Notes: a model not told the origin generated them from the letters alone. Positions 28,357 to 50,223 are shown, counted from the first letter of the stretch. The stretch is DNA of 64,000 bases from Candidatus Fraserbacteria bacterium (GCA_037440025.1 JBBIUX010000001.1:11700-75699), one strand, 5' to 3'. Translations and numbers: made by a program.

Positions 28357-28423
28357 GATTCACCTCACAGTATGAACAAATGCATACTCAGTATAACTCT
28401 GGCGGACGGGCACTGTCAAACGC

Positions 28424-31400: not shown

Positions 31401-31804
31401 TCTGTGAGAAGAAAGCGCACCTTGGGCAAGGGCAAGATATGCTTATAGACCGCGTCCACCTGATGGGGCAGGAGATCTACTTGGGTGACGCTGACAGCAT
31501 AGTGAGGGTCGAACGTATAAGCCAAGCGCATACGAAGCGCTTCCGCGTAGAGCAAGAAGGGCTTCTGAGGTAGCAGATTTCCTTGAGCGAACTGTTCTCT
31601 CAAAGAAGGGATAACCTTCACCCGCTGGGACAACTCTTCAGGGCTTAGGTAGAACGTTTCTGCGCGTTTGCTCTGCTGAAAGATGAGGCCGAGCCGGATC
31701 TTTTCCCCCACAGGTTCGCAGAGGAAGACTTGAGCAGTCTCCTCGAAGGGGGCTAGCCGAACCAGATCGCCGTGACGGAGTAAGGGCTTGGCTTGGGGTG
31801 TCAT
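28424..31804 (-). CDS. SNF2-family helicase with C-terminal DUF3883 nuclease-like domain
   Basis: 1126 aa. LLTDDPGLGKT, FDEAHEL, LLLTATPHKGD, QRMGRIHRYGQ. C-terminus GYDILSQG..RHIEVKG..LTLHEWQMAQRLGDKYWVYAV. Confidence 0.85.
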   Translation of the reverse strand: MTPQAKPLLRHGDLVRLAPFEETAQVFLCEPVGEKIRLGLIFQQSKRAETFYLSPEELSQRVKVIPSLREQFAQGNLLPQKPFLLYAEALRMRLAYTFDPHYAVSVTQVDLLPHQVDAVYKHILPLPKVRFLLTDDPGLGKTIMAGLLMKELKVRGVVRRVLLVVPAHLQDQWCREMRDWFREEFTQIDRGLAEQLRSDDFLERNPQLITSLDFAKREPYPQLLSRRRWDLVIFDEAHELSAAKYGREEKRTQRYELGAALARATTHLLLLTATPHKGDHFAYFKLIELLAPYLFADEWHLLETSRAQGQLPFVLRRSKEQAKDLLGNPLFKKREVSSLKVALSSEEAKLYEAVTAYVKKWYGRVAAAKDRRSRNIGLALVVLQRRLASSLTAIGESLKRRRAKLLTLLDRWEAVRDTEYELPTDAPDEEPEDYTAQERERFEEQREGLTAAESPEELRDEIRHLDRLIQLAQQAARVSQEAKTEQLRGLVERHLKNDSDEKLLVFTEFKDTLYGLIKRFREWGYETATIHGEMTLSERIEQERRFRAPDVQVMVATEAAGEGLNLQFCRLMVNYDLPWNPNRLEQRMGRIHRYGQKRDCFVYNMLYHQTREGQVLDTLLEKLNEMRQQLGDSVYDVVGTLLEGVKLEQLVMQAVLKDSPQEVEVTFTRDLEQAFQQYRRALEESALASHHIDHMAILQEDTRSLEMRLVPWDVERFTREALGLIGGTMQADKKDKGVWKVAVPREFAKKFHLPDSLVRGLRVAFERKVIKEAETLPELLAPGHPLFEALCEHFLQGKEKPLRTLLLDPKGRSGSLWFYCAQVLDGENQTAREQLLTFFYDSASAEVRAVDPRVLWEFEGAEPDATIPQHFIEGLTQAQEAIRSEVARYTDRVFEEAKARRERDTRIKRDYLERSFNTLMAESNRKLLDYQKRLDAGEDMRLVIEEEEKHLKALVREKTERLKALEREMALVRLEPELIAVALVVPKGTFTEQAAAALADEELKKRIERTAMAVAMSYERAQGRTPQDVSLEFRGYDILSQGPDETRHIEVKGFQTTGELQLTLHEWQMAQRLGDKYWVYAVENALTSPQLTRIQNPAEKLPAPEEILRTVKVVFADWKKAVESEN

Positions 31805-31853
31805 GATCCCTCAAGGCTTGGCACTCTGCGCTAGAAACTTTCAACTATCTTGC

Positions 31854-31930
31854 TGGTACGCCCGGGAGGACTTGAACCTCCGACCTCTGGCTCCGCAGGC
31901 CAGCGCTCTGATCCCCTGAGCTACGGGCGC
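31854..31930 (-). tRNA. tRNA-Arg (anticodon GCG), CCA encoded
   Basis: GCGCCCG-TA-GCTCAGGGGATCAGAGC-G-CTGGC-CTGCGGA-GCCAG-AGGTC-GGAGGTTCAAGTCCTCC-CGGGCGT-A-CCA. Closely resembles my recollection of E. coli tRNA-Arg. Confidence 0.9.
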
Positions 31931-31987
31931 GTGTGCACGGCTATTCTAACAGGCAAACAGAGGCTTGTCAACGGGCAAATCCCCCTC
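31865..31987. repeat. attL: 123-bp direct repeat (tRNA-Arg nt 1-66 plus 57 bp upstream)
   Basis: Identical by eye to 37879-38001. Confidence 0.9.
31943..31971 (-). promoter_or_regulatory. consensus sigma70 promoter of tRNA-Arg (lies inside the direct repeat)
   Basis: Minus strand TTGACA (31966-31971), 17 nt, TAGAAT (31943-31948), 12 nt before the mature 5' end. Identical copy at 37957-37985. Confidence 0.7.
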
Positions 31988-32065
31988 TACTCACCCTCGA
32001 CTCTCCAGAGGCCGTCTGAGCCATAAAAAGGGGGTAGGCCAGCGGTCTTTTTTCGGCCAACTTTT

Positions 32066-32995
32066 ATGGTCAGCGAGACAGTCAACCAGCGGACGTTCGG
32101 TCAGCTCTCGGCAGCGTTCGAGGGCTTTCAGTTGTATGCCAGAATCGAGGGACGGTCAGCGAAGACGTTGGAAGTCTATCGGGTGGCTTTCCAAGACGTG
32201 CTCAGTTTCCTTGGGGAGAGCATAGCCTTATCCGACGTGGCTGCAGGGGATATACGGCGCTGGATTGCCCATAAATTGGACGCTGGCTACTCCAAGACGA
32301 CTATCAATATCCGGCTGCGTGCTTTGCGCGCCTTTTTTAACTGGCTTGTCCGAGAAGGGTATATGACGGAGAGACCCTTAGCCAACGTCAAGCAACTGCG
32401 AACGCCAAGACAGTATCCTTACGTGCTCTCAGAGCAACAGGTCATGGCGCTGCTGAGGGTTATCAAGCGAGACTCTTGGACGGGCAAGCGCAACTGGGCA
32501 ATGGCGCTGACCATGCTCGACGCCATGCTCCGGCTCTCCGAGCTTATCCACCTAGAGCTTGCAGACGTGAACTTGCAAGCTCGCTCAATAAGAGTGCGTC
32601 ACGGCAAGGGGGATAAAGAGCGCGTGGTCTTTATGGGCCGCCGTCTCACAAGGGCCATGCACGACTGGCTTGCGGTGAGAGGCTATCACGTCGGGGAAGA
32701 TAGAGTCTTTGTCACCCGTCAAGGCACAAAGCTCGACAGCCGCAACGTGCAACGGATACTCGAACGGTATGCAGCCAAGGCGAAACTGACGGACGTGCGG
32801 GTCAGCCCGCACACATTGAGACACACCGGCGCGACGCTCTTTATCAGATACGGCGGCGACCCCTTTAGCCTGCAAAAGCTCTTAGGTCACAGCACTGTCA
32901 CCGTGACAGAGATTTATGTGCACATGGCGGGCACGGCTTTGAGGGAAGCGCACGCCAAGGCGAGCCCGGTGGATAGGCTGTTGGAGGGGAGCTAA
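32066..32995 (+). CDS. tyrosine recombinase/integrase (XerC/D-like)
   Basis: 309 aa. N-terminal SAM-like core-binding domain (LRALRAFFNWLVREGY). Catalytic ..MLRLSEL..GKGDKER..SPHTLRHTGAT..LLGHSTVTVTEIYVH. Confidence 0.9.
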   Translation: MVSETVNQRTFGQLSAAFEGFQLYARIEGRSAKTLEVYRVAFQDVLSFLGESIALSDVAAGDIRRWIAHKLDAGYSKTTINIRLRALRAFFNWLVREGYMTERPLANVKQLRTPRQYPYVLSEQQVMALLRVIKRDSWTGKRNWAMALTMLDAMLRLSELIHLELADVNLQARSIRVRHGKGDKERVVFMGRRLTRAMHDWLAVRGYHVGEDRVFVTRQGTKLDSRNVQRILERYAAKAKLTDVRVSPHTLRHTGATLFIRYGGDPFSLQKLLGHSTVTVTEIYVHMAGTALREAHAKASPVDRLLEGS

Positions 32996-33087
32996 AACGA
33001 GAGTTTACCATTGTCCCCGGCTTAAAGGTCAGTCTTCCTTCATTTTCAGTGTAATGACCTAATAGAGTTCTAAGTTGGAGTGATTTT

Positions 33088-33810
33088 GTGCGGATAGTAG
33101 CTATATCTTTAATAGGTATGTTTTGGGCTGGTCTGCTCATTAGCTGTACACCTCAGCAGCCCTCCAACCAGAGCCCTGTGGCTGCAATCGAAGCTTCTGT
33201 TACCAGCGGCGAGGCTCCACTCACGGTAGTTCTGAGCGGGGCACGCTCGTATGACCCGGATGGGACAATCACCCGATATGAATGGGATTTGGGCAACGGA
33301 GATAAGTCGAGCGGGGTTTCTGTCACGCACATTTATCAGCAATCGGCCACTTTCACAGTAGGCCTTAGCGTGACCGACGATAAAGGAGCTACAGCTTCAG
33401 CCACAATTTCAATCACAGTTGCGAAGGCTAGCTGTCCGCGTGATAGCACAAGCAATGGACAACTTCGACTTGCGGTACGGTCTATAAGCGTGGCGAGTGA
33501 ACTCGGGATTTGGCAGCCAAGTGAGGGCAACAGATTCTTAATTGTGGACGTGTCGATAGAATCTCTAGCGGACGACCAGCTAGCGAATGCGTTACTCTTC
33601 AAAATTGAAGAAGAAGACGGTACAGCGCACGATATCAGTATAGCAACTGCTTCTCTTCCTAAACCATTTGAGTCTGTCACATTAGACCGTGGACAAAAAA
33701 CTGGCGGACAGCTTGCTTTTGAAGTCGGCCTTTCGGTTCGCCAAGTGAAACTGCACTATAAACCTCTGCTGACCGGCCAGAAAATGAAGTTATGTCTTAG
33801 CGTGCCGTAA
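33088..33810 (+). CDS. lipoprotein with PKD domain and DUF4352-like Ig-fold domain
   Basis: Lipobox LLISC. PKD pattern PLTVVLSGARSYDPDGTITRYEWDLGNGD..VGLSVTDDKGA. C-terminus ..GNRFLIVDVSIESL.. Confidence 0.6.
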   Translation: MRIVAISLIGMFWAGLLISCTPQQPSNQSPVAAIEASVTSGEAPLTVVLSGARSYDPDGTITRYEWDLGNGDKSSGVSVTHIYQQSATFTVGLSVTDDKGATASATISITVAKASCPRDSTSNGQLRLAVRSISVASELGIWQPSEGNRFLIVDVSIESLADDQLANALLFKIEEEDGTAHDISIATASLPKPFESVTLDRGQKTGGQLAFEVGLSVRQVKLHYKPLLTGQKMKLCLSVP

Positions 33811-33921
33811 GGAGACTGTTGACTATCTCCCATGATTTGCGTCACTGTCAAATTCGTCTACCTGTGTATCGTGAACAATCCTTGAGTGAGCGGCCCCCAA
33901 ACATTCAGAATCCCTTGACCG

Positions 33922-34662
33922 TCAGGCAAACAATCCATTGGCCAGAGGCCCCAACTCTCTCTCGACCTCTTCCCTGGTCACTATGCCCTCTCTTACAGCC
34001 TGCACTATCTCCTTTCGCCAATCCGATACTGCAATGTTATCCGTTGATTGACCAGCAGCAAGCCGCGCAGTCTTTAATGCTTCGCTGAGCACTTCGCAGT
34101 AGCGCTTGGACGCCGACGCAATCTGACAAAGCACGGCGACACTATTCTTATCTTGAGCCCTCAACTCCTCCAATAGCTTGCCACACTCTCGCGCTCCCTC
34201 ACGCGCTATCTGCATAGCTTCCAAGGCGCCCTCTACGGAAAGTAGGTTTATTTCGGCTAACGCGTCACCGACGGTTTCAACGGTTTTTTGCTGTGCTCGC
34301 GCTGCAATAGCTCTTTGGTTCTGTTCTCGCAGCTCGTTCCACTTTTCGGCCTTAATTCTGTCTGCCAGCGTGCGAGAGCTGATGCCCCAGCGCTTCTCAA
34401 TGTCCCGACAGGTAGGGTAGACCCTGTTGCCAGCCTCGTCTTCCCAGCCCAGCGTGTAGGCAGCTTTTATCTCGTCCCAGGGTATCCTGCGAAAGCCCAT
34501 TTTCACCCTGTCAATCGCTACGCAAATCCACCCGTTACCCGCACACGGGGCACCGGCCCGACTGACGAACCAGCGCGACACTAGCCCATTCTGAGGTTGG
34601 GCATACCCGCTGCCATAACCCTTGCAAGCGTCACACACTTGCAAGCCCGATACGTTGGCCAA
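33922..34662 (-). CDS. hypothetical protein (HTH-like segment; weak resemblance to phage small-terminase/regulator proteins)
   Basis: 246 aa. CDACKGYG near the N-terminus, RDIEKRWGISSRTLADRIKAEKW HTH-like, coiled C-terminal half. True start may be internal (MGFRRIPW). Confidence 0.4.
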   Translation of the reverse strand: MANVSGLQVCDACKGYGSGYAQPQNGLVSRWFVSRAGAPCAGNGWICVAIDRVKMGFRRIPWDEIKAAYTLGWEDEAGNRVYPTCRDIEKRWGISSRTLADRIKAEKWNELREQNQRAIAARAQQKTVETVGDALAEINLLSVEGALEAMQIAREGARECGKLLEELRAQDKNSVAVLCQIASASKRYCEVLSEALKTARLAAGQSTDNIAVSDWRKEIVQAVREGIVTREEVERELGPLANGLFA

Positions 34663-34717
34663 TTCGGCGGGATTGGCGACCCTCCGACACCGTTGCAGCT
34701 ATCTTATCCCAGATTTG

Positions 34718-34770
34718 TTTCGATTACTAGCCAATTCCATTGCGATTACTCTCAGCCTATTTTGATTCAC
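34718..34770. repeat. three iteron-like direct repeats, 20-22 bp spacing
   Basis: TTTCGATTACT (34718), TTGCGATTACT (34740), TTTTGATTCAC (34760), between the prim-pol stop and the start of 33922-34662. Confidence 0.45.
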
Positions 34771-34842
34771 AAGCAAATCCCCTCTTCTTTCCCTTGTGGG
34801 ACAGTTGCATTTCAAAATCCGCTTTTGAAGCCCTTTTTTTCT

Positions 34843-35754
34843 TCAAGTGTCCCGCTTACTAGTTGAGAGAGACATTGAAGACGTTGACGTGGCTATTGAC
34901 GCAAGACGTGAGACTGTTGACTTTGAAACTCCAGCAAGTCGCGCAATTTCGCGCCGAGAGAGCTTTGAATTTGCGAGTGCGACGCGCAGAACTTTGGAGA
35001 TTTTGTCTTCCGCGTCGCGTCGTTTCGCAGCTTCTTTTCGCGCAATACACTCGAAAGTGTAGTGAAGCTGCTTTTCAGAAAGCGGCGGGCGGTTTTGTAA
35101 GTTCCAGCCGCGCAAGAGCCGCCAGACAACCGTCTCCCAGTCGGATTGGTTAAAAGCACCGAGTAGCTTGCCCGCCATTTGAGCGGCGCTGACGTTGCGG
35201 TAGCCTTCGGGAACGCCGCGAACAATATCAGCAACGGTATCAGCTTTAGGACGGGCGCGGTGTCGCTTCAGCATTTCAAACAGCCAAGCTGGGCAGGGCG
35301 CGGGTTCGGCTTCGGTCGGTGGAATCACCCACTCGTAGACCTTGCCGGACGGGTGTATTGACGGCGGGGCGACGACGTAGCCGCCTTCACCACGCACGTC
35401 GAGACCGTCAGCAAGACTGGTCACACTGCGAATTGTCGCGTTCTGAAGCGAGAAATAGTAATGCTGCCCTCTTGCTGTCTCACAGAACGGCGTGACGGGC
35501 ACGCCCTTACCAAGCCGTTTTAGTGCCTCTTGCGCGTCGCAGTCAAGCACAAGCAAGTTGCTGATTTTCCCGCAGACGACGGCTATGTTTGCGTCCGCTT
35601 CTCTCTCAAAAAGCGTGACGATTTCGTCTTCGGTTAGCTTGCGCCGTTGAAACTCTTTCCAGCTGCGCGCCGGGGCCTTCGAGCAACGCGGGAGTGGAAA
35701 GACGTTGCAATTTAGCGTCTTGTGCAGTTCCAGCGCGGCTTCTAAAGCACTCAC
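34843..35754 (-). CDS. bifunctional DNA primase/polymerase (prim-pol N-terminal domain) protein
   Basis: 303 aa. ..NVFPLPRCSKAP..W..NIAVVCGKISNLLVLDCD..YYF..GLDVRGEGGYVVAPPSIHPSG pattern. C-terminal HTH (REIARLAGVSKSTVSRL). Confidence 0.75.
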   Translation of the reverse strand: MSALEAALELHKTLNCNVFPLPRCSKAPARSWKEFQRRKLTEDEIVTLFEREADANIAVVCGKISNLLVLDCDAQEALKRLGKGVPVTPFCETARGQHYYFSLQNATIRSVTSLADGLDVRGEGGYVVAPPSIHPSGKVYEWVIPPTEAEPAPCPAWLFEMLKRHRARPKADTVADIVRGVPEGYRNVSAAQMAGKLLGAFNQSDWETVVWRLLRGWNLQNRPPLSEKQLHYTFECIARKEAAKRRDAEDKISKVLRVALANSKLSRREIARLAGVSKSTVSRLASIATSTSSMSLSTSKRDT

Positions 35755-36128
35755 GCTCCCACCCCCGAAAAGAGCGGAAGCTGCTTAGCTCTTGCCTTTA
35801 CGCACAGTACTCTTTTCGCTGGAGCATGTGGATTCGGGCGACGCTCATACACTGCAAGCAGGGCTTCGAGAATTGGCCCCTTGTGCTCCGGCTTGAAGTG
35901 ATAAAGCTTGCGCCCAACGTAGCCCTCTTGAGGTTCACTGATAAACGGCAGCCCGACGTCATTACGACAGAGTTTCACGTCTGGATAGCGGAAAACATTG
36001 GCGTTGCCCTCGGTGATTGAAATGTCAGCAAAACAAAGCGCGTTACCCGTGCGACAATCCCAACGCACAAGCCTTTCGATTTCAACGGAAAGATTGCCTT
36101 GTGCAGGTTTTTCTGATAAAATTTTCAT
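35751..36128 (-). CDS. hypothetical protein (4-nt overlap with prim-pol)
   Basis: 125-aa ORF, translationally coupled to the downstream prim-pol gene. No recognisable domain. Confidence 0.45.
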   Translation of the reverse strand: MKILSEKPAQGNLSVEIERLVRWDCRTGNALCFADISITEGNANVFRYPDVKLCRNDVGLPFISEPQEGYVGRKLYHFKPEHKGPILEALLAVYERRPNPHAPAKRVLCVKARAKQLPLFSGVGA

Positions 36129-41331: not shown

Positions 41332-42806
41332 TGATGGACACGGTTTGCTTTGGGACTGACGGCTGGCGCGGCGTGATCGCCCGCGATTTTACGTTTGCCA
41401 ACGTGGGCCGCGTCGCCGGGGCCATCGCTGCGTATCTGAAAAGCCCGCAGCGACGCTCGTTAGAAGTCTACAAAAAATGGGGCGTGGCGTATCGCCCGCC
41501 GGAGCGCGGCGTCGTCATCGGCTACGACACGCGCTTTCTCTCCAAAGAGTTTGCTGTGCACATCGGGCGCGTGCTCCAAGACGCAGAGATTCCCGTCTGG
41601 ATCGCGCACGAGCCCGTCCCCACCCCGACGCTCTCCTACGCTGTCTCCCATCACCAAGCAGCCCTCGGCGTGATGGTCACAGCCAGCCACAACCCGCCCG
41701 AATACAATGGGGTTAAGATTAAGATAGAATACGCAAGCTCCGCCCCGCCCAGCGTCACCCAGCTCATCGAATCTCTCGTCCCTTCAGAGGCGCCGACGCC
41801 CAAGACCCCAGCGAGTGCGCTCAACTTTGCAGACTTCAAAAGCCCGTATCTTGCACGTATCCACCAGCTTATTGACACCGAGCTGCTGCGCCAGAGCGAT
41901 CTGTGCGTCCTGATTGACGCGATGTACGGGGCAGCGCGAGGGTACGTCGCGGAGATTCTCAAAGAGCTGGGTGTAGAGTTTCTCACGGTGCGTCACGGCG
42001 ATAACCCGCGCTTTGGCGGAAAGAACCCTGAACCCATCGAGAAAAATCTAGGCCCCCTGCGGGCGGTGATCGCCAGCGAGCGCCAGAGAAAATTCAAGAG
42101 TGCCAAGTGCTTGCTCGGGGTCATCACCGACGGCGACGGTGATCGTGTCGCGGCGATGGACGAACTCGGACAGGTGATAGATTCTCATCGCTGCTTCGCG
42201 CTCATGCTGAAGTACTTAGTAACAAAAGGCTGGCGCGGAAAGGTCGTCAAGTCGTTCACGCTCTCCGATATGATAGATACGCTCGCCGTCAAAAATAATT
42301 TAGAGCTGGACGAAGTCCCCGTCGGGTTCAAATATATTTGTGAAAAGATGGTGCGCGAAGACGTCTTAATTGGGGGCGAAGAATCGGGCGGGATCGCCAT
42401 AAAAAATCACATTCCCGAACGAGACGGGGTCTTAAATTCGCTCTTGCTCTGCGAGGTCGCCGCGCGGGCGAAAAAGCCCACAAGCGAGATCATCAACGAT
42501 CTGTTAGCTGAAGTTGGCCCGCACTGGTACGACCGGCGCGACCTGCGTCTAGAGAGCCGTTTAGAAGTCGTCGAGCACGTGAAGCGTCGGCCACCTCAGC
42601 AGATCGCTGGGCTCAAAGTTATCAAAACAGAGATGCTTGACGGAGTGAAGCTGCGATTTTCACACGGCTGGTTGCTGCTGCGAGCCAGCGGGACCGAGCC
42701 GCTCTTGAGGCTCTATTGCGAGCTGGACTCGTTGGAGAAAGTGCATGAAGTCTTAGACGAAGCGGAGCGCTTCGCGCGGGGCGATCTGAGCTTATGGGTG
42801 AAATAA
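41331..42806 (+). CDS. phosphoglucomutase/phosphomannomutase-family phosphohexomutase
   Basis: TASHNPPEYNGVKI (active-site Ser), ITDGDGDRVA (Mg site), GGEESGG (sugar-binding loop). Confidence 0.9.
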   Translation: MMDTVCFGTDGWRGVIARDFTFANVGRVAGAIAAYLKSPQRRSLEVYKKWGVAYRPPERGVVIGYDTRFLSKEFAVHIGRVLQDAEIPVWIAHEPVPTPTLSYAVSHHQAALGVMVTASHNPPEYNGVKIKIEYASSAPPSVTQLIESLVPSEAPTPKTPASALNFADFKSPYLARIHQLIDTELLRQSDLCVLIDAMYGAARGYVAEILKELGVEFLTVRHGDNPRFGGKNPEPIEKNLGPLRAVIASERQRKFKSAKCLLGVITDGDGDRVAAMDELGQVIDSHRCFALMLKYLVTKGWRGKVVKSFTLSDMIDTLAVKNNLELDEVPVGFKYICEKMVREDVLIGGEESGGIAIKNHIPERDGVLNSLLLCEVAARAKKPTSEIINDLLAEVGPHWYDRRDLRLESRLEVVEHVKRRPPQQIAGLKVIKTEMLDGVKLRFSHGWLLLRASGTEPLLRLYCELDSLEKVHEVLDEAERFARGDLSLWVK

Positions 42807-42818
42807 CCTATGCGGGTG

Positions 42819-42897
42819 GCGCGCCCATTCGACGCTCTTCTCCTTCGGCTGGCCGAACAGCTCTGGATGCAAATAGAAGCCTCGTTCTGGCTTCATC
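42819..42897. repeat. cassette-boundary repeat, copy A
   Basis: GCGCGCCCATTCGACGCTCTTCTCC..GGCTGGCCGAACA..GGCTTCATC. The minus strand reads MKPERGFYLHPELFGQPKEKSVEWARHP. Confidence 0.75.
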
Positions 42898-43009
42898 CCT
42901 TTTTCATCCCGGAGTGCCCCACGTCTACACCTATCTGCCGCACGCGGATCCGCCAACCGTGCAACAAGCGACGTTGGCCCTCCGGGATGTTTTCATCGAG
43001 GAGATACAT
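42893..43009 (-). pseudogene. DUF5615 (PIN-like) toxin, truncated to 38 aa
   Basis: MYLLDENIPEGQRRLLHGWRIRVRQIG.. then a stop where repeat copy A begins. TAATG overlap with the upstream DUF433 gene. Confidence 0.6.
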
Positions 43010-43260
43010 TAGCTGATTGTTTCTGCCGCGAATTCCGGCGCATGGACAGCCAAGGCCTCCCGCGCCAGGCGGACTGCTTCGGCGATGGCCTGCTTGGTCA
43101 GCGCCCCGTGCCATTCTTCTATAATAGCTTCCCAGGCCATACCGAAGGCTACTTGTTCAAGCACATCGGTGACCAGAACACGCGTGCCACGGAAAGTGGG
43201 CTGGCCATGGCAGATCGCGGGATCGACGACGATATATCGCCCTAAGGCTTTGGCGGCCAT
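43009..43260 (-). CDS. DUF433 antitoxin-like protein
   Basis: 83 aa. YIVVDPAICHGQPTFRGTRVLVTDVLE hallmark. Confidence 0.75.
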   Translation of the reverse strand: MAAKALGRYIVVDPAICHGQPTFRGTRVLVTDVLEQVAFGMAWEAIIEEWHGALTKQAIAEAVRLAREALAVHAPEFAAETIS

Positions 43261-43317
43261 ACAGGGTCACCCGGCACGATTGTACGCTCTTCCTGTCTCT
43301 CCGGCAAGCGTTTGATT

Positions 43318-43378
43318 ATCTCAGGGTTGCGCGCCCATTTCGACACTCTGGGTCTCCGGCTTCATCTCTTCGACCGGG
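43318..43378. repeat. cassette-boundary repeat, copy B (internally deleted)
   Basis: ATCTCAGGGTTGCGCGCCCATTTCGACACTCT..GGTCTCCGGCTTCATCTCTTCGACCGGG. Begins 4 nt after the HTH gene stop. Confidence 0.7.
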
Positions 43379-43381
43379 ATT

Positions 43382-43717
43382 CTATGAGCCGGCCCGAGCG
43401 ATGCGACGAGGGACCAAATCGATTCTGAGTTCCGCCTGCAACGCCCGCGCGATCTGTTCGAGCGTCTTCAGCTCTACGTTCCCGCCGTTCTCCACGCGCG
43501 AGATCACCGAAGGGCTCGTGTGCAACAGAGCGGCGAGCTGCGTTTGCGTCAATCCCAGCTTCACCCGCAACGCGGCGATGCGGACGCCTAACCGTACCAA
43601 CTCCAGCCCTTCTTCATAAGCCTGGCGAAATTCGGGATTAGCCAGCTGCTGCTTCTTGTACTCTTCGTACCGGGTCACTTGGCGCTCCGCAACCTTTTGA
43701 GCCTTCGACTGAGCCAT
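43382..43717 (-). CDS. XRE-family HTH antitoxin (HigA-like)
   Basis: 111 aa. LRVKLGLTQTQLAALLHTSPSVISRVENGG. Confidence 0.75.
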   Translation of the reverse strand: MAQSKAQKVAERQVTRYEEYKKQQLANPEFRQAYEEGLELVRLGVRIAALRVKLGLTQTQLAALLHTSPSVISRVENGGNVELKTLEQIARALQAELRIDLVPRRIARAGS

Positions 43718-43720
43718 GCT

Positions 43721-43819
43721 TCAACCTCCCTTCTTCTGCTGGTGCGGCAGCGAGTCGAGAAACTCCTCGACCGGACAGCGGCCTTCGTCATCCTCGTAGA
43801 AGGCAATCCGCCAAGACAC
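43721..43819 (-). pseudogene. HigB/Gp49-like toxin remnant (32 aa)
   Basis: Hand translation (V)SWRIAFYEDDEGRCPVEEFLDSLPHQQKKGG*. The N-terminus matches Gp49-type toxins and the body is missing. Its end supplies the GGGAGG RBS for the antitoxin. Confidence 0.5.
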
Positions 43820-43885
43820 AGCTTATATGATATAGCAGAAAAGATAGAAACGCCAGGTCTGCGCGAAGGCCCCGTCGCGATCCAC

Positions 43886-43975
43886 TCAACGGAGCCCCAA
43901 GACGATCTCGACGGGGATGCGGGGCTTGCCGTGGCAGATGTTCGGATCAACCTCGATGCGCTCGGCGATCTTCAT
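43886..43975 (-). pseudogene. DUF433 remnant (29 aa)
   Basis: Hand translation MKIAERIEVDPNICHGKPRIPVEIVLGLR*. Confidence 0.5.
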
Positions 43976-44117
43976 AGGGCACCACCGCCTGGGATTGTAG
44001 CAAGGGCGAGCGAGTCCGGCCACCCGCTTTCTGGCCTTGAGCCTTGGAATCACGGCAGGCTTGGCCTCCGTGCTCCTCTGTGCCTTCCGTGGTTCAAGAG
44101 AGGGTCACGCCGCCAGC

Positions 44118-44303
44118 TTAGGGCTTCGGTATGCCCAGGTCTTTACAAATCTTACTGACCAGCTTTTCACGAATCTCGCGATGTCGCGGCACTGATGAAA
44201 TTCTTCTATTGGCCGGGTTCCAATAGATAGTATGCCTGGGCCCCTCGCGCAGAAACTGACAGCCATGCTGTTCCAGGTGTCGGAGCAGATCGCGACGCTT
44301 CAT
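44118..44303 (-). CDS. hicA: HicA toxin
   Basis: 61 aa. MKRRDLLRHLEQHGCQFLREGPRHTIYWNP. Confidence 0.8.
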   Translation of the reverse strand: MKRRDLLRHLEQHGCQFLREGPRHTIYWNPANRRISSVPRHREIREKLVSKICKDLGIPKP

Positions 44304-44525
44304 TTACGTCGTGACTACCAGCTTTTCTTTAAGGACCGGCTTGTCAGCGATCTCGCGCTCGGCCAGCTCTCGATTGGCTGCCAGCACCAAAGCGACGGCT
44401 TCTTTCAGATTCGCGCGCGCTTCTTCGAGTGTTCGTCCTTGGGTGTTCGCGCCGGGCAACTCTTCTACGTAGGCAATCCACCAATCGTCGTCTTGTTCGA
44501 AGACGGCCGTGAAGCAGTTCTCCAT
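44304..44525 (-). CDS. hicB: HicB antitoxin (UPF0150-type)
   Basis: MENCFTAVFEQDDDWWIAYVEELPGANTQGRTLEEARANLKEAVALVL. Start moved to ATG 44523-44525. Directly abuts hicA. Confidence 0.75.
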   Translation of the reverse strand: MENCFTAVFEQDDDWWIAYVEELPGANTQGRTLEEARANLKEAVALVLAANRELAEREIADKPVLKEKLVVTT

Positions 44526-44651
44526 TGTCGAGATCACCCTTGGTTTCAGTTTAACTGTTGCAGTCCTATAGGGCAAGTTGATCAGGATCACGGAAAGCGC
44601 GGAAGTCGTTTTCCGTGTCTCCCGTGCTGCTCCGTGCATTCCGTGGTTCTA

Positions 44652-44790
44652 TTACTTTGGCATCCCCTGCAACTGCTTCATCATGTCTGGATTATGTGCC
44701 CCTTCGACGCTCTTCTCCTCCGGCTGGCCGAACAACTCCGGGTGCAGATAGAAGCCCCGCTCCTTCTCGGGCTTCATCTCTTTGACCGGG
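44652..44790. repeat. cassette-boundary repeat, copy C
   Basis: The minus strand reads ..LPVKEMKPEKERGFYLHPELFGQPEEKSVEGAHNPDMMKQLQGMPK* (part of ORF 44652-44849). Confidence 0.75.
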
Positions 44791-44830
44791 AGGCGCTGGG
44801 CGTTGGCGTAGGCGTCCTGGCGGATGCCCG

Positions 44831-45049
44831 TCAGCGCCGTCGCAAGCAAAAGCGATCCCGGCGATACTCCACGAGAAAGTGTTCCAAAACCCCGGCTCGC
44901 CCCAACACCACCGGCACGCGCTCCTCAGGCACGAAGATCACGGGCAGCTCAAAGGGATGCTTCAATAACTCAGCATGCACCGTTCGACCGCCCCCAAGCC
45001 AGCGGTAAACTCGGGGGTATAGGGAAAGCAGCGGGCACGGGCCATTCAC
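44831..45049 (-). CDS. hypothetical protein (possible C-terminal fragment of a retropepsin-like protein)
   Basis: 72 aa. GTGA overlap with the DUF5678 gene. ..PVIFVPEERVPVVLGRAGVLEHFLVEY resembles the C-terminal half of bacterial retropepsin-like proteins, but no DTG/DSG motif is present. Confidence 0.25.
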   Translation of the reverse strand: MNGPCPLLSLYPRVYRWLGGGRTVHAELLKHPFELPVIFVPEERVPVVLGRAGVLEHFLVEYRRDRFCLRRR

Positions 45050-45264
45050 AGCACCAGAGCGTCCTCCGTCGGCGGGAAGTACTTGAGCACCGGGTCACTG
45101 TCAGGGTATCTTCGCTTGGCTTGCGCGTAAGCCTCTTGAGCCGTAGCGCCATAGCCTGCTACTTCTCGGCCGACGAGGGCTACGAACCGGCCAGCATACT
45201 GCTGAGAGAGCTGCAAGCCCTGCTCCTGGAGAAACGCGAACTCTTCGATCTTTCGGAGCCCCAT
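45046..45264 (-). CDS. DUF5678-like small protein
   Basis: 72 aa. ..YAGRFVALVGREVAGYGATAQEAYAQAKRRYPDSDPVLKYFP. TATAAT about 10 nt upstream of the ATG (possibly leaderless). Confidence 0.5.
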   Translation of the reverse strand: MGLRKIEEFAFLQEQGLQLSQQYAGRFVALVGREVAGYGATAQEAYAQAKRRYPDSDPVLKYFPPTEDALVL

Positions 45265-45279
45265 AGCGCTCTGATTATA

Positions 45280-45456
45280 CTATTTCTTCGCCTCACCTGC
45301 CTTCCGCTCCTCCTCCCACTGCTTGCGCATCTCCTGCATCTGTCTCATCATCTCAGGGTTGCGCGCCCATTCGACGCTCTTCTCCTCCGGCTAGCCAAAG
45401 AGTTCCGGGTGCAAACAGTAGCCCCGCTCTTGCTCGGGCTTCATTTCTTCGACTGG
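45280..45456. repeat. cassette-boundary repeat, copy D (longest; in-frame TAG)
   Basis: The minus strand reads PVEEMKPEQERGYCLHPELFG*PEEKSVEWARNPEMMRQMQEMRKQWEEERKAGEAKK*. Confidence 0.75.
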
Positions 45457-45495
45457 CAGGCCCGATCTCCGAGGCGGCCATCAAAAGCCGAAGTC

Positions 45496-45723
45496 CTATG
45501 ACAGCAGGGCGACGAATCCCTCTACCGTCAGACCGGCTTTGCGGATCAGGCTGCGCACGAGGCCCCTGTCCAGCTCCTTGTGATTGGGCACAGAGAGCGA
45601 GTAAGGACTGCCCGACTGGCTAAGCACAAAGTGATTCCGCTGGCTCAGCCGGTCGAGGGTCCACCCAGCCTTGACGAACGCTCTCACCGCTTCTTCCCCG
45701 CTAACTCGTGGGAGACGAGGCAA
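45496..45723 (-). CDS. hicA: HicA-family (YcfA-like) toxin
   Basis: 75 aa. RVSGEEAVRAFVKAGWTLDRLSQRNHFVL..VPNHKELDRGLVRSLIRKAGLTVEGF. Confidence 0.75.
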   Translation of the reverse strand: MPRLPRVSGEEAVRAFVKAGWTLDRLSQRNHFVLSQSGSPYSLSVPNHKELDRGLVRSLIRKAGLTVEGFVALLS

Positions 45724-45954
45724 CTAGACGACCACCTCGACTTCGCGGGTCTCGACGGTCAACGGCATACCTTGCCGCTTGCGCACTTCCAGGCAGGCGA
45801 GGATTGCGTCCTTGATGTTCTCCAACGCTTCTTCCTGGGTGCGGCCTTGGGACATGCACCCAGGAATGGCCGGGCACTCGGCAATGATATAGCCGTCCTC
45901 GCCGGGCTCCAGGGTGACGAGGAGTTTCAAGACTTGGCGGCGCTGCTTAGCCAT
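45724..45954 (-). CDS. hicB: HicB antitoxin (UPF0150-type)
   Basis: 76 aa. GYIIAECPAIPGCMSQGRTQEEALENIKDAI. Confidence 0.75.
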   Translation of the reverse strand: MAKQRRQVLKLLVTLEPGEDGYIIAECPAIPGCMSQGRTQEEALENIKDAILACLEVRKRQGMPLTVETREVEVVV

Positions 45955-46293
45955 AACGATTCTTCCCCGATGAGATTATAGCCCGTGGGCTTCTCGTCGG
46001 CCACTCGTCAGGCTCCTGTTGACTCACCGGAGCCGGGCAGCTTTCAGCATCACTTCTGTGGCCGCGCCTCCATCGCCTGCTCCAGCGCCTGAAGCCGCTC
46101 CCATCCCGTGTGGGCTACACCCTCCGCATCCACTTTGAATTCCTCGAATTCCTCTGGCTGCTGGTCAACCAAAATCTGGGGGCAGCGTGAAGGGCTCCGC
46201 CCCGCGGGCCTTGAGGTCTTGGCGGATCCCCGAACAGTCACAGGACACCTCAAGACTTGGCGAGATCGCCAGCCTTGAGGTAGAATCAAAACC

Positions 46294-46503
46294 ATGAAGA
46301 AGTGGATCGTTTCAGACCCAGAGCATCTGGGGGGCGCTCTTAGGGTGCGCGGCACGCGGATCTCTATCGCCCTGCTGCTGGAGCTTCTATCCTGCGGTAT
46401 GACCATGGCTGAGATTGTGCAGGAATACCCCAGCCTCAGCGAGGAAGCTATCCGCGGGGCCTTAGAGGAGTTGGCTCACTCCGAGCTGCTGGCTGTCCCA
46501 TGA
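46294..46503 (+). CDS. DUF433 antitoxin-like protein
   Basis: 69 aa. IVSDPEHLGGALRVRGTRISIALLLELL. Promoter-like TTGGCG-18-TAGAAT at 46257-46286. Confidence 0.7.
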   Translation: MKKWIVSDPEHLGGALRVRGTRISIALLLELLSCGMTMAEIVQEYPSLSEEAIRGALEELAHSELLAVP

Positions 46504-46550
46504 AGATCCTGCTCGACGAGAACTTGCCCGAATGTGCGTCAGATGAGTAG
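46500..46550 (+). pseudogene. DUF5615 toxin remnant (16 aa)
   Basis: ATGA overlap with the DUF433 stop. MKILLDENLPECASDE* and then the convergent gene begins. Confidence 0.55.
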
Positions 46551-46576
46551 TCGCTCCAAGACGAAGCTGTTACGGG

Positions 46577-47368
46577 TCATCCTGCCGCAGCAGCCAGCCC
46601 AACCTCCCGCCCCCACACCCGCAGCCGCAGCGCCTCCGTTCGCGTCACCCCCTCAAGACTCTGCCCATTGCTCAGATAAATTTGCACGTGTAGCCCCTCA
46701 GAGCGCAACACCGTCAGCTGCCGCAGCTCGCTCTTGAGAAACTTCCGGACCTCCCCAGAGCGGAGCTGAACCGAAAACTCTTGCGTCAGCACTTCGCCGG
46801 AAAACACGCCGCCCGCTTGCGTCGCGATCAACTCGGCTCGTGTGCGCACCTGCTGAAAACTGAAGATCGCCCGGCTCAACAGACGCGCTTGCACGGTCAA
46901 CGGCAGTCTGTGATAGACCCCCCGCACCACAAAAGACTCTACCTGCTCCGGCTCGATCGAGAGCTCGAAGGGCTCTTGGACGAGCACGCGCATCGCCAAG
47001 GGCGAGACGAGCTGCCCAGCCCTAAGCTCAAACTCCCCATTGACAAAGAGCAGCACGCGCGGTTCTTCTCCGAAAGCGGGCAGATACCCCACGACCTCGC
47101 CCACGGGCGCCTCCCACCTCTGAGGGCCCCGGCCCGTCTCGATCTCAAACTGCAAACGCTCGCTCACGAGACAGCCCTGAAGAATCTGCCCGTCGGCCAG
47201 CACACCGTCCAAGCGGGCTAACTCGGAGAAGAAGCGCGTCTCGGGGGAAAGCTCTGCGCCGGGCTTTTCGGGCAGCGCCGGCCCCGGACAGCTCGGCAGT
47301 TGGCCAAAAGTGACTGCGCTCGGAAGCAGCGCCAGTGCAACGGCTAGAACGAAGATAATGGCTCTCAT
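46577..47368 (-). CDS. hypothetical secreted protein
   Basis: 263 aa. Signal peptide MRAIIFVLAVALALLPSAVTFG, GGAGG RBS. No domain recognised. Confidence 0.55.
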   Translation of the reverse strand: MRAIIFVLAVALALLPSAVTFGQLPSCPGPALPEKPGAELSPETRFFSELARLDGVLADGQILQGCLVSERLQFEIETGRGPQRWEAPVGEVVGYLPAFGEEPRVLLFVNGEFELRAGQLVSPLAMRVLVQEPFELSIEPEQVESFVVRGVYHRLPLTVQARLLSRAIFSFQQVRTRAELIATQAGGVFSGEVLTQEFSVQLRSGEVRKFLKSELRQLTVLRSEGLHVQIYLSNGQSLEGVTRTEALRLRVWGREVGLAAAAG

Positions 47369-47381
47369 GGTACCTCCTGGT

Positions 47382-47474
47382 GAGACCTAACCCCCGACCC
47401 CTTCCCGTAGGGGCACGGCATGCCGTGCCCCTACACCCCTCCCTCTTTAGGGGAGGGGCTAGGGGAGAGGTCTC
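47382..47474. repeat. GC-rich nested palindrome containing a perfect 28-bp palindrome
   Basis: Outer arms GAGACCT..AGGTCTC. Core GTAGGGGCACGGCA|TGCCGTGCCCCTAC (47407-47434). CCCCTCCCTCTTTAGGGGAGGGG hairpin. Confidence 0.8.
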
Positions 47475-47760
47475 AAAATACTTGCAACTGATACCATCCC
47501 GACCCCGAGGCCGCCACGACCTTCAGATAATAAATAGAGTCCGTCGCGGTGAGATCGCATCGGGGCAGCCATAGGCCGTCGAGCTGCGAATTTGATTGAG
47601 ATGACGGTCTAACAGATACAGATCGAAATCGTTCCCGAAGGTACAGAGCAAGGTCGCCGTGTAGCTGGTGCCGGAACTTGTACTCAGACGATAGAGATGA
47701 CTCTCGCCCTTGCTGATAAAGCGCGTGGGGGAGCTGGGCGCACTGAGAGACTCGTCTGTT

Positions 47761-47821
47761 TGTAGGGGCGTACGCACCTACAAACGGCAGATTGATCCGT
47801 CGGGGGAATTTCTACAAAGCC
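47761..47821. repeat. short palindromic repeat (TGTAGG..CCTACA plus GAATTTCTACAAAGCC)
   Basis: Shares TTTCTACAAAGCC with the right end of 39428-39570. Confidence 0.5.
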
Positions 47822-47826
47822 ACAGC

Positions 47827-50223
47827 CTATACCGTGACAGTTTGGTGCTTCAGTTCCTGCTCTTTCTCCGCGATCAACAGTCGCGTCTTAATGACCGTGT
47901 CGGGGTTGAGCGAGATGCTGTCAATCCCGCACTCGACTAAGAACTCTGCAAATTCCGGAAAATCCGAGGGCGCCTGCCCGCAAATCCCGATCTTGCGCCC
48001 CTTGCGACGCGCCACGTCAATGACGTGCCTGACTAAACGCTTCACAGCTTCGTTGCGCTCGTCGTAAATATGGGCAACTAATTCCGAGTCGCGATCCAAT
48101 CCCAATGCCAACTGGGTGAGATCGTTGCTCCCGATGGAAAAACCGTCAAAGATCTCGGCGAACTCTTCAGCTAAGAGCACATTGCTTGGGATCTCGCACA
48201 TCACGTAGACTTCGAGACCGTTCTCGCCCTGGCGCAGCCCAAACTCGGCCATCGTCTTGATGACTTTACGCCCTTCTTCGGGCGTCCGACAGAAGGGGAT
48301 CATCACTTTGATGTTTTTCAATCCCATCTCGTCGCGGGCTTTCTTGAGCGCTTGGCATTCTAGACCAAAGGCGTCTTTGTATTTGGGATCGTAATAGCGC
48401 GACGCCCCCCGCCAGCCGATCATCGGATTCGATTCCGACGGCTCGTAGAGCACGCCTCCGATGAGACTCGCATACTCGTTGCTCTTGAAGTCTGAGAGTC
48501 TCACAATGACGTCGTTGGGCCAGAAGGCCGCAGCGATCTGGGCGACCCCCGACGCGAGCCTGTCCACAAAGAACTGGGCTTTATCGCGATAGCCGACCGT
48601 TCTCTCGTCAATCTGTCTGACGATCTGGGCGATCTTCTCGTCGTGGGCCGCGCGAGCTTGAAGCTGCTCGTACTCCAAGAGCGCCTTGGGGTGAATGCCG
48701 ATGTGCGAACTAATAATAAACTCTTCGCGGGCCAGCCCGACGCCATCGTTGGGGATACGAGCTTGGGCAAAGGCCATCTCCGGGATGCCCACGTTCATCA
48801 TGATCTTTGTGCGTGTGCGGGGCAGCTGCGCCACATCAATGCGATCTACCCTGAACTTCAAGCGTCCAGCGAAGACGCGCCCTTCGCCCTGGGAGCAGTC
48901 TACCGTGATCTCTTGTCCGGTCTGAATCTTTTGTGTAGCGCCCTCAGCGCCGATGACGCAGGGGATGCCCAGCTCACGCGACACTATAGCGGCGTGACAT
49001 GTGCGGCCCCCGCGCTCGGTCACGATCGCTGAAGCGATCTTCATAATGGGCTCCCAATCGGGGTCAGTCATCTCAGTCACTAAGACCTCACCGGCGCGGA
49101 AACGCCCGATCTCTGAGACGTCACGGATGACGTGCGCTGGACCTTGTCCGATCTTGCTCCCCACAGGCTCACCACGCACTATGAGCTTCCCAGTCTCCTC
49201 AAGCACGCAGTTTTCTAATGTGCTTGCACTGTTAGCTCCATGCACGGTCTCCGGCCGCGCCTGCACAACGAAGAGTCTTTGAGTGACTCCGTCCTTGGCC
49301 CACTCGATGTCCATGGGACGCCCATAGTGCGCTTCGATCTGCATGGCCCAGCGCGCCAATTGCAAGACTTCGTCGTCACTGATGGAAAAACGCTGCTGCT
49401 CCTCAGAGCTGACGATCTCTTCGCGCAGGGCGCCGTTGGCGCAGACGAGCTTCTTCTGCTTGCTGCCCAGACGCTTCTCAATCAGTGCTTTGTAATTCTT
49501 TCTCAGTCCCGGCTTGAAGACGTAGAACTGATCGGGGTTGACCCGCCCCTGCACCACCAGTTCGCCGAAGCCGTAGGATGACGTCACATAGACGACGTTC
49601 TCAGCCCCTGACTCGGGGTCAATCGTAAAGAGCACGCCGGACGCTGCCAAATCCGAGCGAACGAGCTGTTGGACGACGACAGCGATATCGACGTCGCCGT
49701 TGGTGAAGCCGCGGTCGCGGCGATACGAAATCGCCCGGTCAGTGAAGAGGCTGGCGAAGCAGCGCCGCACTCGGTTCAGCAGCATCTCCTCGCCTTTGAT
49801 ATTCAAAAAAGTGTCGTGCTGGCCCGCGAACGAATGCTCTGCGGAGTCTTCGATAGTCGCCGACGAGCGCACGGCGACATCGGGGCTGCCGGTCTTTTGG
49901 ACAAGCTGGCGATATGCTTGGCGAATCTCGCCTTCAAGATCAGACGGCAGCGGCGCCTCGACAATCAAACGCCGGATTTTTTGTCCTTGGTCCGCGAGCA
50001 TCTGAACATCGCTCGTGTCCACCTCGGTGATAAGGGCGCGAATCTGCGTGTCAAGTCCTGTGCGACTCATAAAAGAACGATAGGCTTCGGCCGTGATCAC
50101 AAAACCGTCGGGAACTGGAATCCCCCGTAGAGTCTGGCGCATCTCCCCCAGTGATGCCCCTTTCCCTCCAACCAAGCCGACATCGGCTTGGCCCACCTCA
50201 TCCAACCATGCGATGCTTTTCAC
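47827..50223 (-). CDS. ppsA: phosphoenolpyruvate synthase (pyruvate, water dikinase)
   Basis: 798 aa. GGKGASLGEM, TERGGRTCHAAIVSRELGIPCVIG (phospho-His), C-terminal PEP-utilising domain GFSIGSNDLTQL. Confidence 0.95.
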   Translation of the reverse strand: MKSIAWLDEVGQADVGLVGGKGASLGEMRQTLRGIPVPDGFVITAEAYRSFMSRTGLDTQIRALITEVDTSDVQMLADQGQKIRRLIVEAPLPSDLEGEIRQAYRQLVQKTGSPDVAVRSSATIEDSAEHSFAGQHDTFLNIKGEEMLLNRVRRCFASLFTDRAISYRRDRGFTNGDVDIAVVVQQLVRSDLAASGVLFTIDPESGAENVVYVTSSYGFGELVVQGRVNPDQFYVFKPGLRKNYKALIEKRLGSKQKKLVCANGALREEIVSSEEQQRFSISDDEVLQLARWAMQIEAHYGRPMDIEWAKDGVTQRLFVVQARPETVHGANSASTLENCVLEETGKLIVRGEPVGSKIGQGPAHVIRDVSEIGRFRAGEVLVTEMTDPDWEPIMKIASAIVTERGGRTCHAAIVSRELGIPCVIGAEGATQKIQTGQEITVDCSQGEGRVFAGRLKFRVDRIDVAQLPRTRTKIMMNVGIPEMAFAQARIPNDGVGLAREEFIISSHIGIHPKALLEYEQLQARAAHDEKIAQIVRQIDERTVGYRDKAQFFVDRLASGVAQIAAAFWPNDVIVRLSDFKSNEYASLIGGVLYEPSESNPMIGWRGASRYYDPKYKDAFGLECQALKKARDEMGLKNIKVMIPFCRTPEEGRKVIKTMAEFGLRQGENGLEVYVMCEIPSNVLLAEEFAEIFDGFSIGSNDLTQLALGLDRDSELVAHIYDERNEAVKRLVRHVIDVARRKGRKIGICGQAPSDFPEFAEFLVECGIDSISLNPDTVIKTRLLIAEKEQELKHQTVTV

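Follow-up and report, generated by a model that had tools for sequence, protein, structure and literature searches.

Relics of a secreted-protein gene end separate small toxin-antitoxin cassettes in a lineage-specific island of an uncultivated bacterial phylum

In a 64,000-nucleotide stretch of the genome of a Candidatus Fraserbacteria bacterium (GCA_037440025.1, JBBIUX010000001.1:11700-75699), hereafter the window, a series of small toxin-antitoxin (TA) cassettes is separated by copies of a minus-strand repeat of 60-180 nt, hereafter the tail. The copies are 5'-truncated pseudogene relics of the 3' ends of genes from one large family of secreted proteins, as evidenced by their significant homology and by disabling lesions (a stop, a frameshift and truncations), and they diverged under protein-level selection. 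Units of cassette and tail recur beside other neighbours in relatives. The reading we favour, held with roughly even confidence, is that the tails are junction scars of a TA island built up by accretion: cassettes would have been added by recombination at the end of the family gene, and erosion would have followed. An earlier note, made from the sequence alone, had described the array, left the encoded peptide unassigned and offered three explanations: remnants of a gene end used repeatedly as an insertion target, boundaries of a cassette-recombination system, and decayed paralogues of a small gene family. Homologues of the adjacent phosphohexomutase place the lineage in Candidatus Bipolaricaulota (Acetothermia).

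Results

Four copies of the tail, A to D, and a possible fifth, E, were found on the same strand (Table 1), with a pairwise nucleotide identity of 80-84%. A 30-nt core of the tail has three matches with at most one mismatch in the window, compared to none in 100 shuffles. The copies were scored with a DNA profile (nhmmer) built from 166 full-length members of the parent family described below. This profile matches copy A at 42807-42891 (E = 1e-19), copy C at 44660-44833 (E = 2e-42), copy D at 45322-45460 (E = 5e-30) and copy B in two pieces, at 43351-43389 (E = 1e-3) and 43297-43346 (E = 0.03). A borderline match, copy E, was obtained at 46216-46286 (E = 0.033, profile positions 6-72), on the same strand as the others and together with weak tblastn matches. 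Its site is upstream of HicBA2 and its profile region lies immediately 5' of where copy C starts, so that it may represent a fifth, much more decayed relic. The array is not a product of misassembly, since L004, an independent Logan assembly, matches 2.2 kb of it with 100% identity.

The four copies, their common orientation and their conserved minus-strand peptide, which is seen in all four translations, agree with the earlier note, except that the extents of copies B and C were corrected; copy C reaches further 5', to 44834 ('LTGIRQDAYANAQR...'), than had been described. The in-frame TAG of copy D was likewise recovered, as was the internal deletion of copy B, which comprises 45 nt and is accompanied by a 1-nt insertion causing a frameshift. 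Copies C and D reach the natural stop codon. In the gene map, each copy closes a TA block on its downstream side, read on the minus strand, as previously stated. The tails start at or just past the last gene of the upstream cassette (B at the XRE stop codon, D about 36 nt after HicA2), and the next cassette begins 15-120 nt past each tail. Copy A lies next to the stop codon of the phosphohexomutase gene (42804-42806), which had also been noted. The further claim that copy A begins where a DUF5615 toxin is cut off was borne out in so far as a truncated gene is fused to copy A. The identity of this gene was not confirmed: its 38-aa remnant has no Pfam match and no BLASTP match to a DUF5615 protein of a relative. 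It is a putative DUF5615-like toxin, judged from its TAATG coupling after DUF433 and its LLDEN-type start.

The tail peptide is the extreme C-terminus of a large family of proteins, typically 350-1000 amino acids (aa) in length. A word-indexed protein search with the 60-aa consensus returned six short proteins, some with additional N-terminal sequence ('..NRFRIAGG..MEVSWQVTGIRQD..'), and the use of their alignment as a query led to 164 confirmed loci in species-representative genomes, mostly from Acidobacteriota and also from Planctomycetota, Verrucomicrobiota, Bacteroidota and others. An exhaustive profile search yielded 7,748 representative clusters, again mostly from Acidobacteriota, with the match always located at the protein's extreme C-terminus. 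A search for a full-length parent, which the earlier note had proposed, therefore ended in a large family of full-length homologues, and the peptide is now placed as the tail of a very large, common and unannotated family of secreted proteins. The open reading frames (ORFs) around the genome matches encode a signal peptide, a variable repeat-rich body and, at the C-terminus, a conserved domain of about 190 aa ('..GSFKIDHPLDPxNKYLYHSFVESPDMMNIYNG...DFRYQLT.IG...NRFKIAGG..VSWQVTGIRQDAWANAHRIPVEE.KPE.ERGYYLHPELYGQPEEK.IEWARNPEMM..'), with the C-terminal signature named as 'VSWQVTGIRQD...ERGFYLHPELFGQPEEK..WARNPEMM'. Neither the tail nor the full-length parents have a significant match in Pfam, NCBIfam, PHROGs or the PDB sequences, and the domain is a candidate for a new domain family. 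An example of a full-length family locus is found at 5604-8294 of L009 (the family loci are L005-L164). Tandem arrays of full-length paralogues, 1.2-4 kb apart, are common in the family, with seven copies in L082 and four or five in L065.

In a comparison of these short sequences, the Bipolaricaulota tails were no more similar to one another (79% identity) than to members outside the phylum (74-82%). A metagenome scan for close relatives of the tail returned only family members that are 41-78% identical and no further tail arrays; all of those examined, except for locus L086 described below, were ordinary genes, either full-length or conventionally disrupted. Tails truncated at the 5' end are rare in other phyla (5 of about 190 family loci). 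The two of these that were examined closely had no link to TA genes, and in one case the gene was cut by an insertion sequence, an ordinary cause of truncation.

The surviving part of the parent gene was delimited by running a protein profile, built from the C-terminal 230 aa of 67 full-length members, against the six-frame translation of the whole window. Matches occur only at profile positions 156-222 of 224, i.e. in the last third of the C-terminal domain (176-206 for copy A, 156-213 for copy C), and no residue of positions 1-155 or of the gene bodies was found in this translation. All relics end within one stretch of about 25 codons. The differences between copies are mostly synonymous. 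Copies C and D are separated by 13 synonymous and 11 non-synonymous changes over 23.7 and 105.3 sites, respectively (omega 0.19, binomial p = 9e-5), and the tail of L086 compared to C or D gives an omega of 0.23 (p about 1e-4). Hence, the copies descend from separately evolving functional gene ends that were disabled later, and an origin as a drifting non-coding repeat is ruled out.

Nucleotide homology to relatives ends at 42802-42809 and returns at 47846-47859. The repeats therefore lie within a lineage-specific island of 5.0 kb. The site was compared in five relatives (L165, L166, L167, L168 and L173) whose phosphohexomutase is 86-92% identical. In four of them the phosphohexomutase gene directly adjoins or overlaps the convergent ppsA, without an island, and the fifth, L166, carries a different 1.3-kb insert with a PhdYeFM antitoxin gene between the two genes. 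The ppsA of L166 (12733-16377) encodes 1,214 aa compared to the usual length of about 800, with a faint LAGLIDADG match suggesting an intein; the ppsA of the window (47827-50223) has no such intein.

Two metagenomic loci share units of cassette and tail with the window. The first, L002, is a 2.8-kb metagenome contig from the Joint Genome Institute that contains the series D'-DUF5678-full protease-C' at 90-92% identity. Its flanks differ: a fragment of a solute-binding-protein gene, rather than HicBA, precedes D', and another antitoxin-type gene follows C'. Tail C' starts at the protease stop codon and is cut after 'ERGFYL'. The second, L086, is another locus between unrelated genes, in the genome that also supplied the island-free L167. 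It comprises HigB, a mostly deleted XRE gene and a complete tail right after the XRE stop codon, which is the same junction as that of tail B, and the cassettes on both sides of this unit differ from those in the window. The comparison across relatives that the earlier note had called for thus revealed turnover, both in these shared units with other neighbours and in the missing island of four of the five relatives. XRE homologues with 83-85% identity, paired with Gp49/HigB genes, also occur in L170-L172, where no tail was found at the HigBA homologues. Because of these tail-free pairs, the tail does not belong to the TA module proper, and its role as an obligatory component of the HigBA cassette is ruled out by these three related contigs.

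Other direct repeats also flank cassettes. The HicB1-HicA1 pair is exactly bracketed by a 28-nt repeat with 25 of 28 positions identical, which has only two copies in the window and none in shuffles. It is direct rather than palindromic, contains repeated CACGG motifs and could be an insertion scar or a duplicated operator. In L086, another gene end recurs three times within the TA island, as a WD40-like '..IKLW..' fragment together with the next 68 nt downstream, at 9490-9531, 10870-10957 and 11836-11923. Two of these copies are 96% identical, and the Pfam support for WD40 is weak. In the same locus, a 25-nt piece of a Phd-like antitoxin gene is duplicated (11115-11139 and 11925-11949).

L002 contains a perfect 37-nt direct repeat (921-957 and 1775-1811), which is the overlap of the 5'-truncated D' and the 3'-truncated C'. 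The two tails are identical over this whole overlap, whereas copies C and D of the window differ there at 7 of 37 positions, and the start of D' is of the C type rather than the D type. This identity suggests recombination or conversion between tails; the repeat may stem from recombination of one tail with another or, with lower likelihood, from a chimeric assembly.

The gene content of the island is listed in Table 1. On the minus strand, the order is the tentative copy E, HicB2-HicA2, tail D, DUF5678 with an aspartyl-protease remnant, tail C, HicB1-HicA1 between the two 28-nt repeats, a DUF433 fragment, a HigB remnant with XRE, tail B, DUF433 with its truncated partner, tail A and the island edge. 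Upstream of E, towards ppsA, follow an opposite-strand DUF433 gene, an unassigned 263-aa gene that is missing from the phosphohexomutase-ppsA junction of the relatives, and a weak PPC-domain fragment (47523-47777, E = 0.027). The DUF433 fragment has no nucleotide similarity to the downstream DUF433 gene, so there is no sign of a flanking duplication. An Rfam scan of 40-50 kb found nothing in the repeats; its only result was a sub-threshold DUF3800-IX RNA match outside them, at 47396-47476 (23 bits compared to a cut-off of 36.8).

In total, six TA-type modules or fragments are present in the island. The second genes of three pairs are damaged (HigB, the protease and the putative toxin paired with DUF433), and their first genes, which are antitoxins or antitoxin-like, are intact. 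The protease gene of L002 encodes 135 aa with a weak Asp_protease_2 match. This pattern of damage is toxin-first erosion, as reported for chromosomal TA islets (PMC13617665).

Table 1. Tail copies, other repeats and genes of the island, in window coordinates
Feature	Position	Strand	Remarks
Tail copy A	42807..42908	-	'MKPE-RGFYLHPELFGQPKEKSVEWARHP'; both ends cut; 3' end is the island edge; nhmmer and translation
Lineage-specific island	42808..47826		5.0 kb; between convergent phosphohexomutase (ends 42806) and ppsA (ends 47827)
Remnant of gene after DUF433	42893..43009	-	38 codons, fused to copy A; stop codon inside tail; sequence and ORF list
DUF433 antitoxin-like gene	43009..43260	-	intact; Pfam PF04255, E = 5e-14
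Tail copy B	43287..43389	-	'AHRIPVEEMKPE/TQSVE..WARNPEIIKRL'; starts at XRE stop codon; nhmmer
XRE/HigA-type antitoxin	43382..43717	-	intact; Pfam HTH_3, E = 2.5e-13
HigB/Gp49 toxin remnant	43721..43819	-	32 aa compared to 116 aa in L170; alignment to L170 and L086
DUF433 N-terminal fragment	43886..44053	-	Pfam PF04255, E = 4e-5 over 29 aa
28-nt direct repeat, copy 1	44068..44095		just downstream of HicA1 on the minus strand
HicA toxin 1	44118..44303	-	full-length match; Pfam PF07927, E = 2.4e-12, profile 2-58 of 58
HicB-like antitoxin 1	44304..44531	-	directly upstream of HicA1; Pfam UPF0150 and HicB_lk_antitox, both below gathering scores
28-nt direct repeat, copy 2	44622..44649		between tail C stop and HicB1
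Tail copy C	44652..44834	-	'LTGIRQDAYANAQRLPVKEMKPEKERGFYLHPELFGQPEEKSVEGAHNPDMMKQLQGMPK', then stop; longest and best kept; inside 65-aa ORF
Retropepsin-like aspartyl-protease remnant	44831..45049	-	partner of DUF5678; 190-nt internal deletion compared to L002
DUF5678 gene	45046..45264	-	intact; Pfam PF18929, E = 1.8e-10; starts 15 nt past tail D stop; 93% to L002
Tail copy D	45280..45460	-	'LPVEEMKPEQERGYCLHPELFG', stop, 'PEEKSVEWARNPEMMRQMQEMRKQWEEERKAGEAKK', stop; in-frame TAG; reaches natural stop codon
HicA toxin 2	45496..45723	-	full-length match; Pfam PF07927, E = 1.6e-10
HicB-like antitoxin 2	45724..45954	-	Pfam PF15919, E = 2e-6
Tentative tail relic E	46216..46286	-	'..LEVSCDCSGIRQD..'; borderline nhmmer match
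Solitary DUF433 gene	46294..46503	+	opposite strand; Pfam PF04255, E = 1e-17
263-aa protein	46577..47368	-	signal-peptide-like N-terminus; no Pfam, NCBIfam or PADLOC match; island member

Discussion

Accretion at a gene end is the simplest explanation for the tails, because only 3' ends are present, their 5' edges are cassette-specific and lie right after the upstream cassette, and natural stops are kept. The divergence under selection, the shared units with changing neighbours and the unrelated flanking repeats at other cassettes lead to the same explanation. Recombination within the final 100-200 nt of a family gene, a conserved stretch, would have brought in or relocated each TA cassette, and each event would leave the cassette flanked by direct copies of the gene end. 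The likeliest route may be Campbell-type integration of a circular molecule consisting of 'gene-end plus cassette', or an equivalent homology-driven exchange between tails. The Campbell product would be a gene end, the cassette and a 5'-truncated gene end, and repeated rounds would build up an array. Two tails around a cassette could also excise it and carry it to any other tail. The array or its ancestor would later have landed between phosphohexomutase and ppsA, and since then small deletions would have eroded the toxins first and the tails as well. A circular intermediate, homologous rather than site-specific recombination, and this order of events are what we infer.

Several observations weigh against accretion. 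An intact parent gene is missing at the head of the array, where HicBA2, the borderline copy E, the opposite-strand DUF433 gene and the unrelated 263-aa gene lie upstream of copy D. No full-length family member was found among the Bipolaricaulota sequences examined, and no integrase or other recombinase is encoded in or next to the island, whose ORFs are TA components, a protease remnant and an unknown protein. Several junctions are illegitimate, joining a tail fragment to unrelated DNA, and are not the tail-tail crossovers expected of homologous exchange: copy A with the truncated toxin, D' of L002 with the solute-binding-protein fragment, and C' of L002 with the other cassette. Conservation within the tail is highest in the 37-nt stretch shared by D' and C', and the excess of differences between D and D' there is not significant (7 of 37 compared to 12 of 125, p about 0.1 by our own estimate). 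The missing tail at the HigBA homologues of L170-L172 points in the same direction. Furthermore, the comparative evidence is drawn from two contigs, both short and metagenomic: L002 (2.8 kb) and L086.

The three explanations of the earlier note fared differently. Remnants of an insertion-target gene end are favoured by the exclusive presence of truncated 3' ends and by the recurrence of units with new neighbours, although the intact parent and the integrase are missing. A cassette-recombination system is not supported in its integron form, given the lack of a hairpin, of R''/R' boxes and of an integron integrase, and the unrelated flanking repeats; a recombinase acting in trans is possible. 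Decayed paralogues were correctly recognised as such, but the family is large and widespread and consists of big proteins instead of being a small gene family. That note had also considered that the copies might simply be pseudogenes of an ordinary multi-copy gene with no positional link to cassette boundaries, or that relatives might show the same static arrangement. A full-length family does exist, but the link to the boundaries holds and the relatives show turnover.

The strongest competing explanation, which we consider unlikely while giving it real weight, is that a tandem series of paralogues was eroded. In this case, an ancestor would have had at least five full-length genes of the family in tandem, as is seen in many Acidobacteriota, with TA cassettes in the gaps, and the gene bodies would have been deleted, with the 3' ends kept beside the start of the next cassette. 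The common tandem arrays of full-length paralogues fit this scenario, which also predicts the observed paralogue-like divergence with an omega of about 0.2. Deletions riddle the island (HigB, the protease and the toxin at copy A), and toxin-first erosion of chromosomal TA islets is documented (PMC13617665). A promoter in the tail end could bound the deletions, considering the 15-120 nt to the next cassette and the promoter-like hexamers in tail B. However, the complete loss of profile positions 1-155 is difficult to reconcile with such an array. If deletion end points were random in genes of about 500 codons, the chance that five relics all fall within the last 80 codons would be about (80/500)^5 = 1e-4 by our estimate. 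In addition, TA genes were found between paralogues in none of the approximately 190 family loci of other phyla, and the TA genes seen in the island never adjoin family members there. The eroded array also leaves the 28-nt repeat at HicBA1 and the WD40-like repeats of L086 unexplained, and relatives with 86-92% phosphohexomutase identity carry no such array at the site.

Accretion at a gene end might also be part of something more general. In this lineage, any short gene end duplicated around a cassette could act as a portable homology patch, from which RecA-type recombination excises the cassette as a circle that is re-inserted at other patches within or between genomes. Such a 'pseudo-integron' without a dedicated recombinase is a doubtful proposition at present.

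Alternatively, a dedicated site-specific system could be responsible, with the tail or its core as an att site and a recombinase provided in trans, comparable to integrons and clusters of attC sites lacking integron-integrases (CALINs), to cis-mobilizable elements (CIMEs) mobilised by an integrative and conjugative element (ICE), or to Xer-dif modules. The small cassettes in one orientation, each followed by a 60-180-nt repeat, have this appearance. Several break points lie near 'GA(G/A)ATGAAGCC', namely the 5' edge of A, the 5' edge of D' in L002 and the deletion start in B. The perfect 37-nt direct repeat of L002 would also fit, and an Xer-like tyrosine recombinase is encoded 10 kb from the island (32066-32995), the only one detected in a scan of ten candidate ORFs of the window. 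Nevertheless, when copies A, C and D were folded as DNA, neither strand did better than 200 shuffles (z from -0.51 to +1.11), and no RYYYAAC...GTTRRRY (R''/R') pair was found at a spacing of 35-140 nt on either strand of 42700-46600. The recombinase scores 95 bits on TIGR02249 compared to the integron-integrase cut-off of 265, and its best matches are XerC, XerD and XerA. Folding, box motifs and integrase score together rule out the reading of the repeats as attC sites of an integron. Palindromes of the pdif type (28 bp, 11-6-11) are likewise not seen, as the 28-nt repeat is direct and dyad symmetry is missing from the tails. With 5' edges that vary by up to 20 codons, the tails have no fixed crossover point, and a fixed recombination core near 'GAGATGAAGCC' is ruled out by this variability. 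Since unrelated sequences flank cassettes elsewhere and the repeat is plainly a coding remnant, a dedicated system appears improbable.

The Xer-like recombinase gene and a Prim-Pol gene (34843-35754) adjoin a complete Hma defence system, which consists of HmaC (21846-24536), the methylase HmaB (25029-27782) and the SNF2 helicase HmaA (28424-31804), with PADLOC E-values from 1e-135 to 1e-183. The region 21846-35754 is probably an integrated element or a defence island. Integrase-bearing elements lie upstream of the conserved DUF4139-phosphohexomutase pair both in the window (about 21800-36000, with Prim-Pol) and in L173 (681-6985, with a D5 primase), which points to a second hotspot for insertions, a few kb away from the TA island.

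Finally, the tails might have been kept for a function, as a promoter or leader of the downstream cassette or as a small peptide. Copy C is located in a 65-aa ORF and D' of L002 in a 54-aa ORF. DUF5678 and DUF433 start only 15 nt and about 27 nt past the tail end, so that a promoter there would have to extend into the tail. The stop codon of tail D is followed by a TATAAT, tail B contains two sigma-70-like sites, and the island has four such sites compared to 1.4 expected, although these are consensus matches that may not correspond to the promoter rules of this phylum. Copy D and its L002 orthologue D' also show some constraint (omega 0.34, p = 0.03). Yet a retained function is scarcely probable, since D is interrupted by an in-frame stop and B by a frameshift, A is cut at both ends, D and D' diverge faster than the adjacent DUF5678 gene (88% compared to 93% nucleotide identity), the four substitutions that separate C from its L002 orthologue are all non-synonymous, and HigBA homologues function without a tail.

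The locus touches on the question of how bare TA modules enter chromosomal islets that have no mobile-element genes, for which a 2026 study on Photorhabdus (PMC13617665) proposes recombination at flanking core genes. Here, scars of cassette joining are kept in the form of gene-end relics, a nested 28-nt repeat and a second type of repeat in a relative. With these preserved scars, sequence data from an uncultivated phylum can be used to test how the cassettes were joined. If the idea of a 'pseudo-integron' were true, it would provide a general mechanism for the assembly of TA islets without mobile-element genes.

Comparison with known systems

Integrative elements are known to accrete in tandem at gene 3' ends: in Streptococcus thermophilus, fda is the target of ICEs and of CIMEs, their non-autonomous att-flanked derivatives, and island arrays occur at tRNA and tmRNA genes. 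The island resembles these cases in that its direct repeats are 5'-truncated gene 3' ends, with one between successive differing inserts, and in that non-autonomous inserts are flanked by repeats. It differs in having neither an integrase nor an intact target gene, in the size of its inserts, which are bare TA modules of only 0.4-1.3 kb, and in its repeats, which are 80-84% identical with variable 5' edges rather than near-identical att cores.

With integron arrays, CALINs and the TA cassettes of sedentary chromosomal integrons, the island shares small cassettes in one orientation, repeats of 60-180 nt, TA cargo and a content that varies between relatives. A nearby IntI is not required for a CALIN. 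In contrast to those arrays, the repeat here is decayed coding sequence without an attC hairpin or R''/R' boxes, and an integron integrase is missing. The pdif modules of Acinetobacter plasmids form TA-rich arrays with 28-bp imperfect palindromes (11-6-11) in alternating orientation and are shuffled between replicons. The similarity lies in the small size of the modules, in their frequent TA content and in the short repeated sites at their borders, whereas the repeats described here are direct, 60-180 nt long, derived from coding sequence and not palindromic.

In gene content, the island resembles the chromosomal TA islets described by Belot et al. 2026 (PMC13617665), which lie in high-turnover spots and whose toxins erode first. 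In common with these, the island is a strain-specific cluster of type II TA genes that is variably present between core genes and contains no mobile-element gene, with toxins truncated and decayed before the intact antitoxins. Gene-end relics between the cassettes set it apart, as none are mentioned in the available text of that paper. Each of its components is of a known kind: the TA islet at a site of turnover, the relics of pseudogenes and the direct repeats left by gene-end insertion. What is unusual is that bare TA cassettes of 0.4-1.3 kb are each separated by a diverged relic of one gene end, that this occurs in an uncultivated phylum in which a full-length family member was not seen, and that the pattern recurs with another gene end in a relative.

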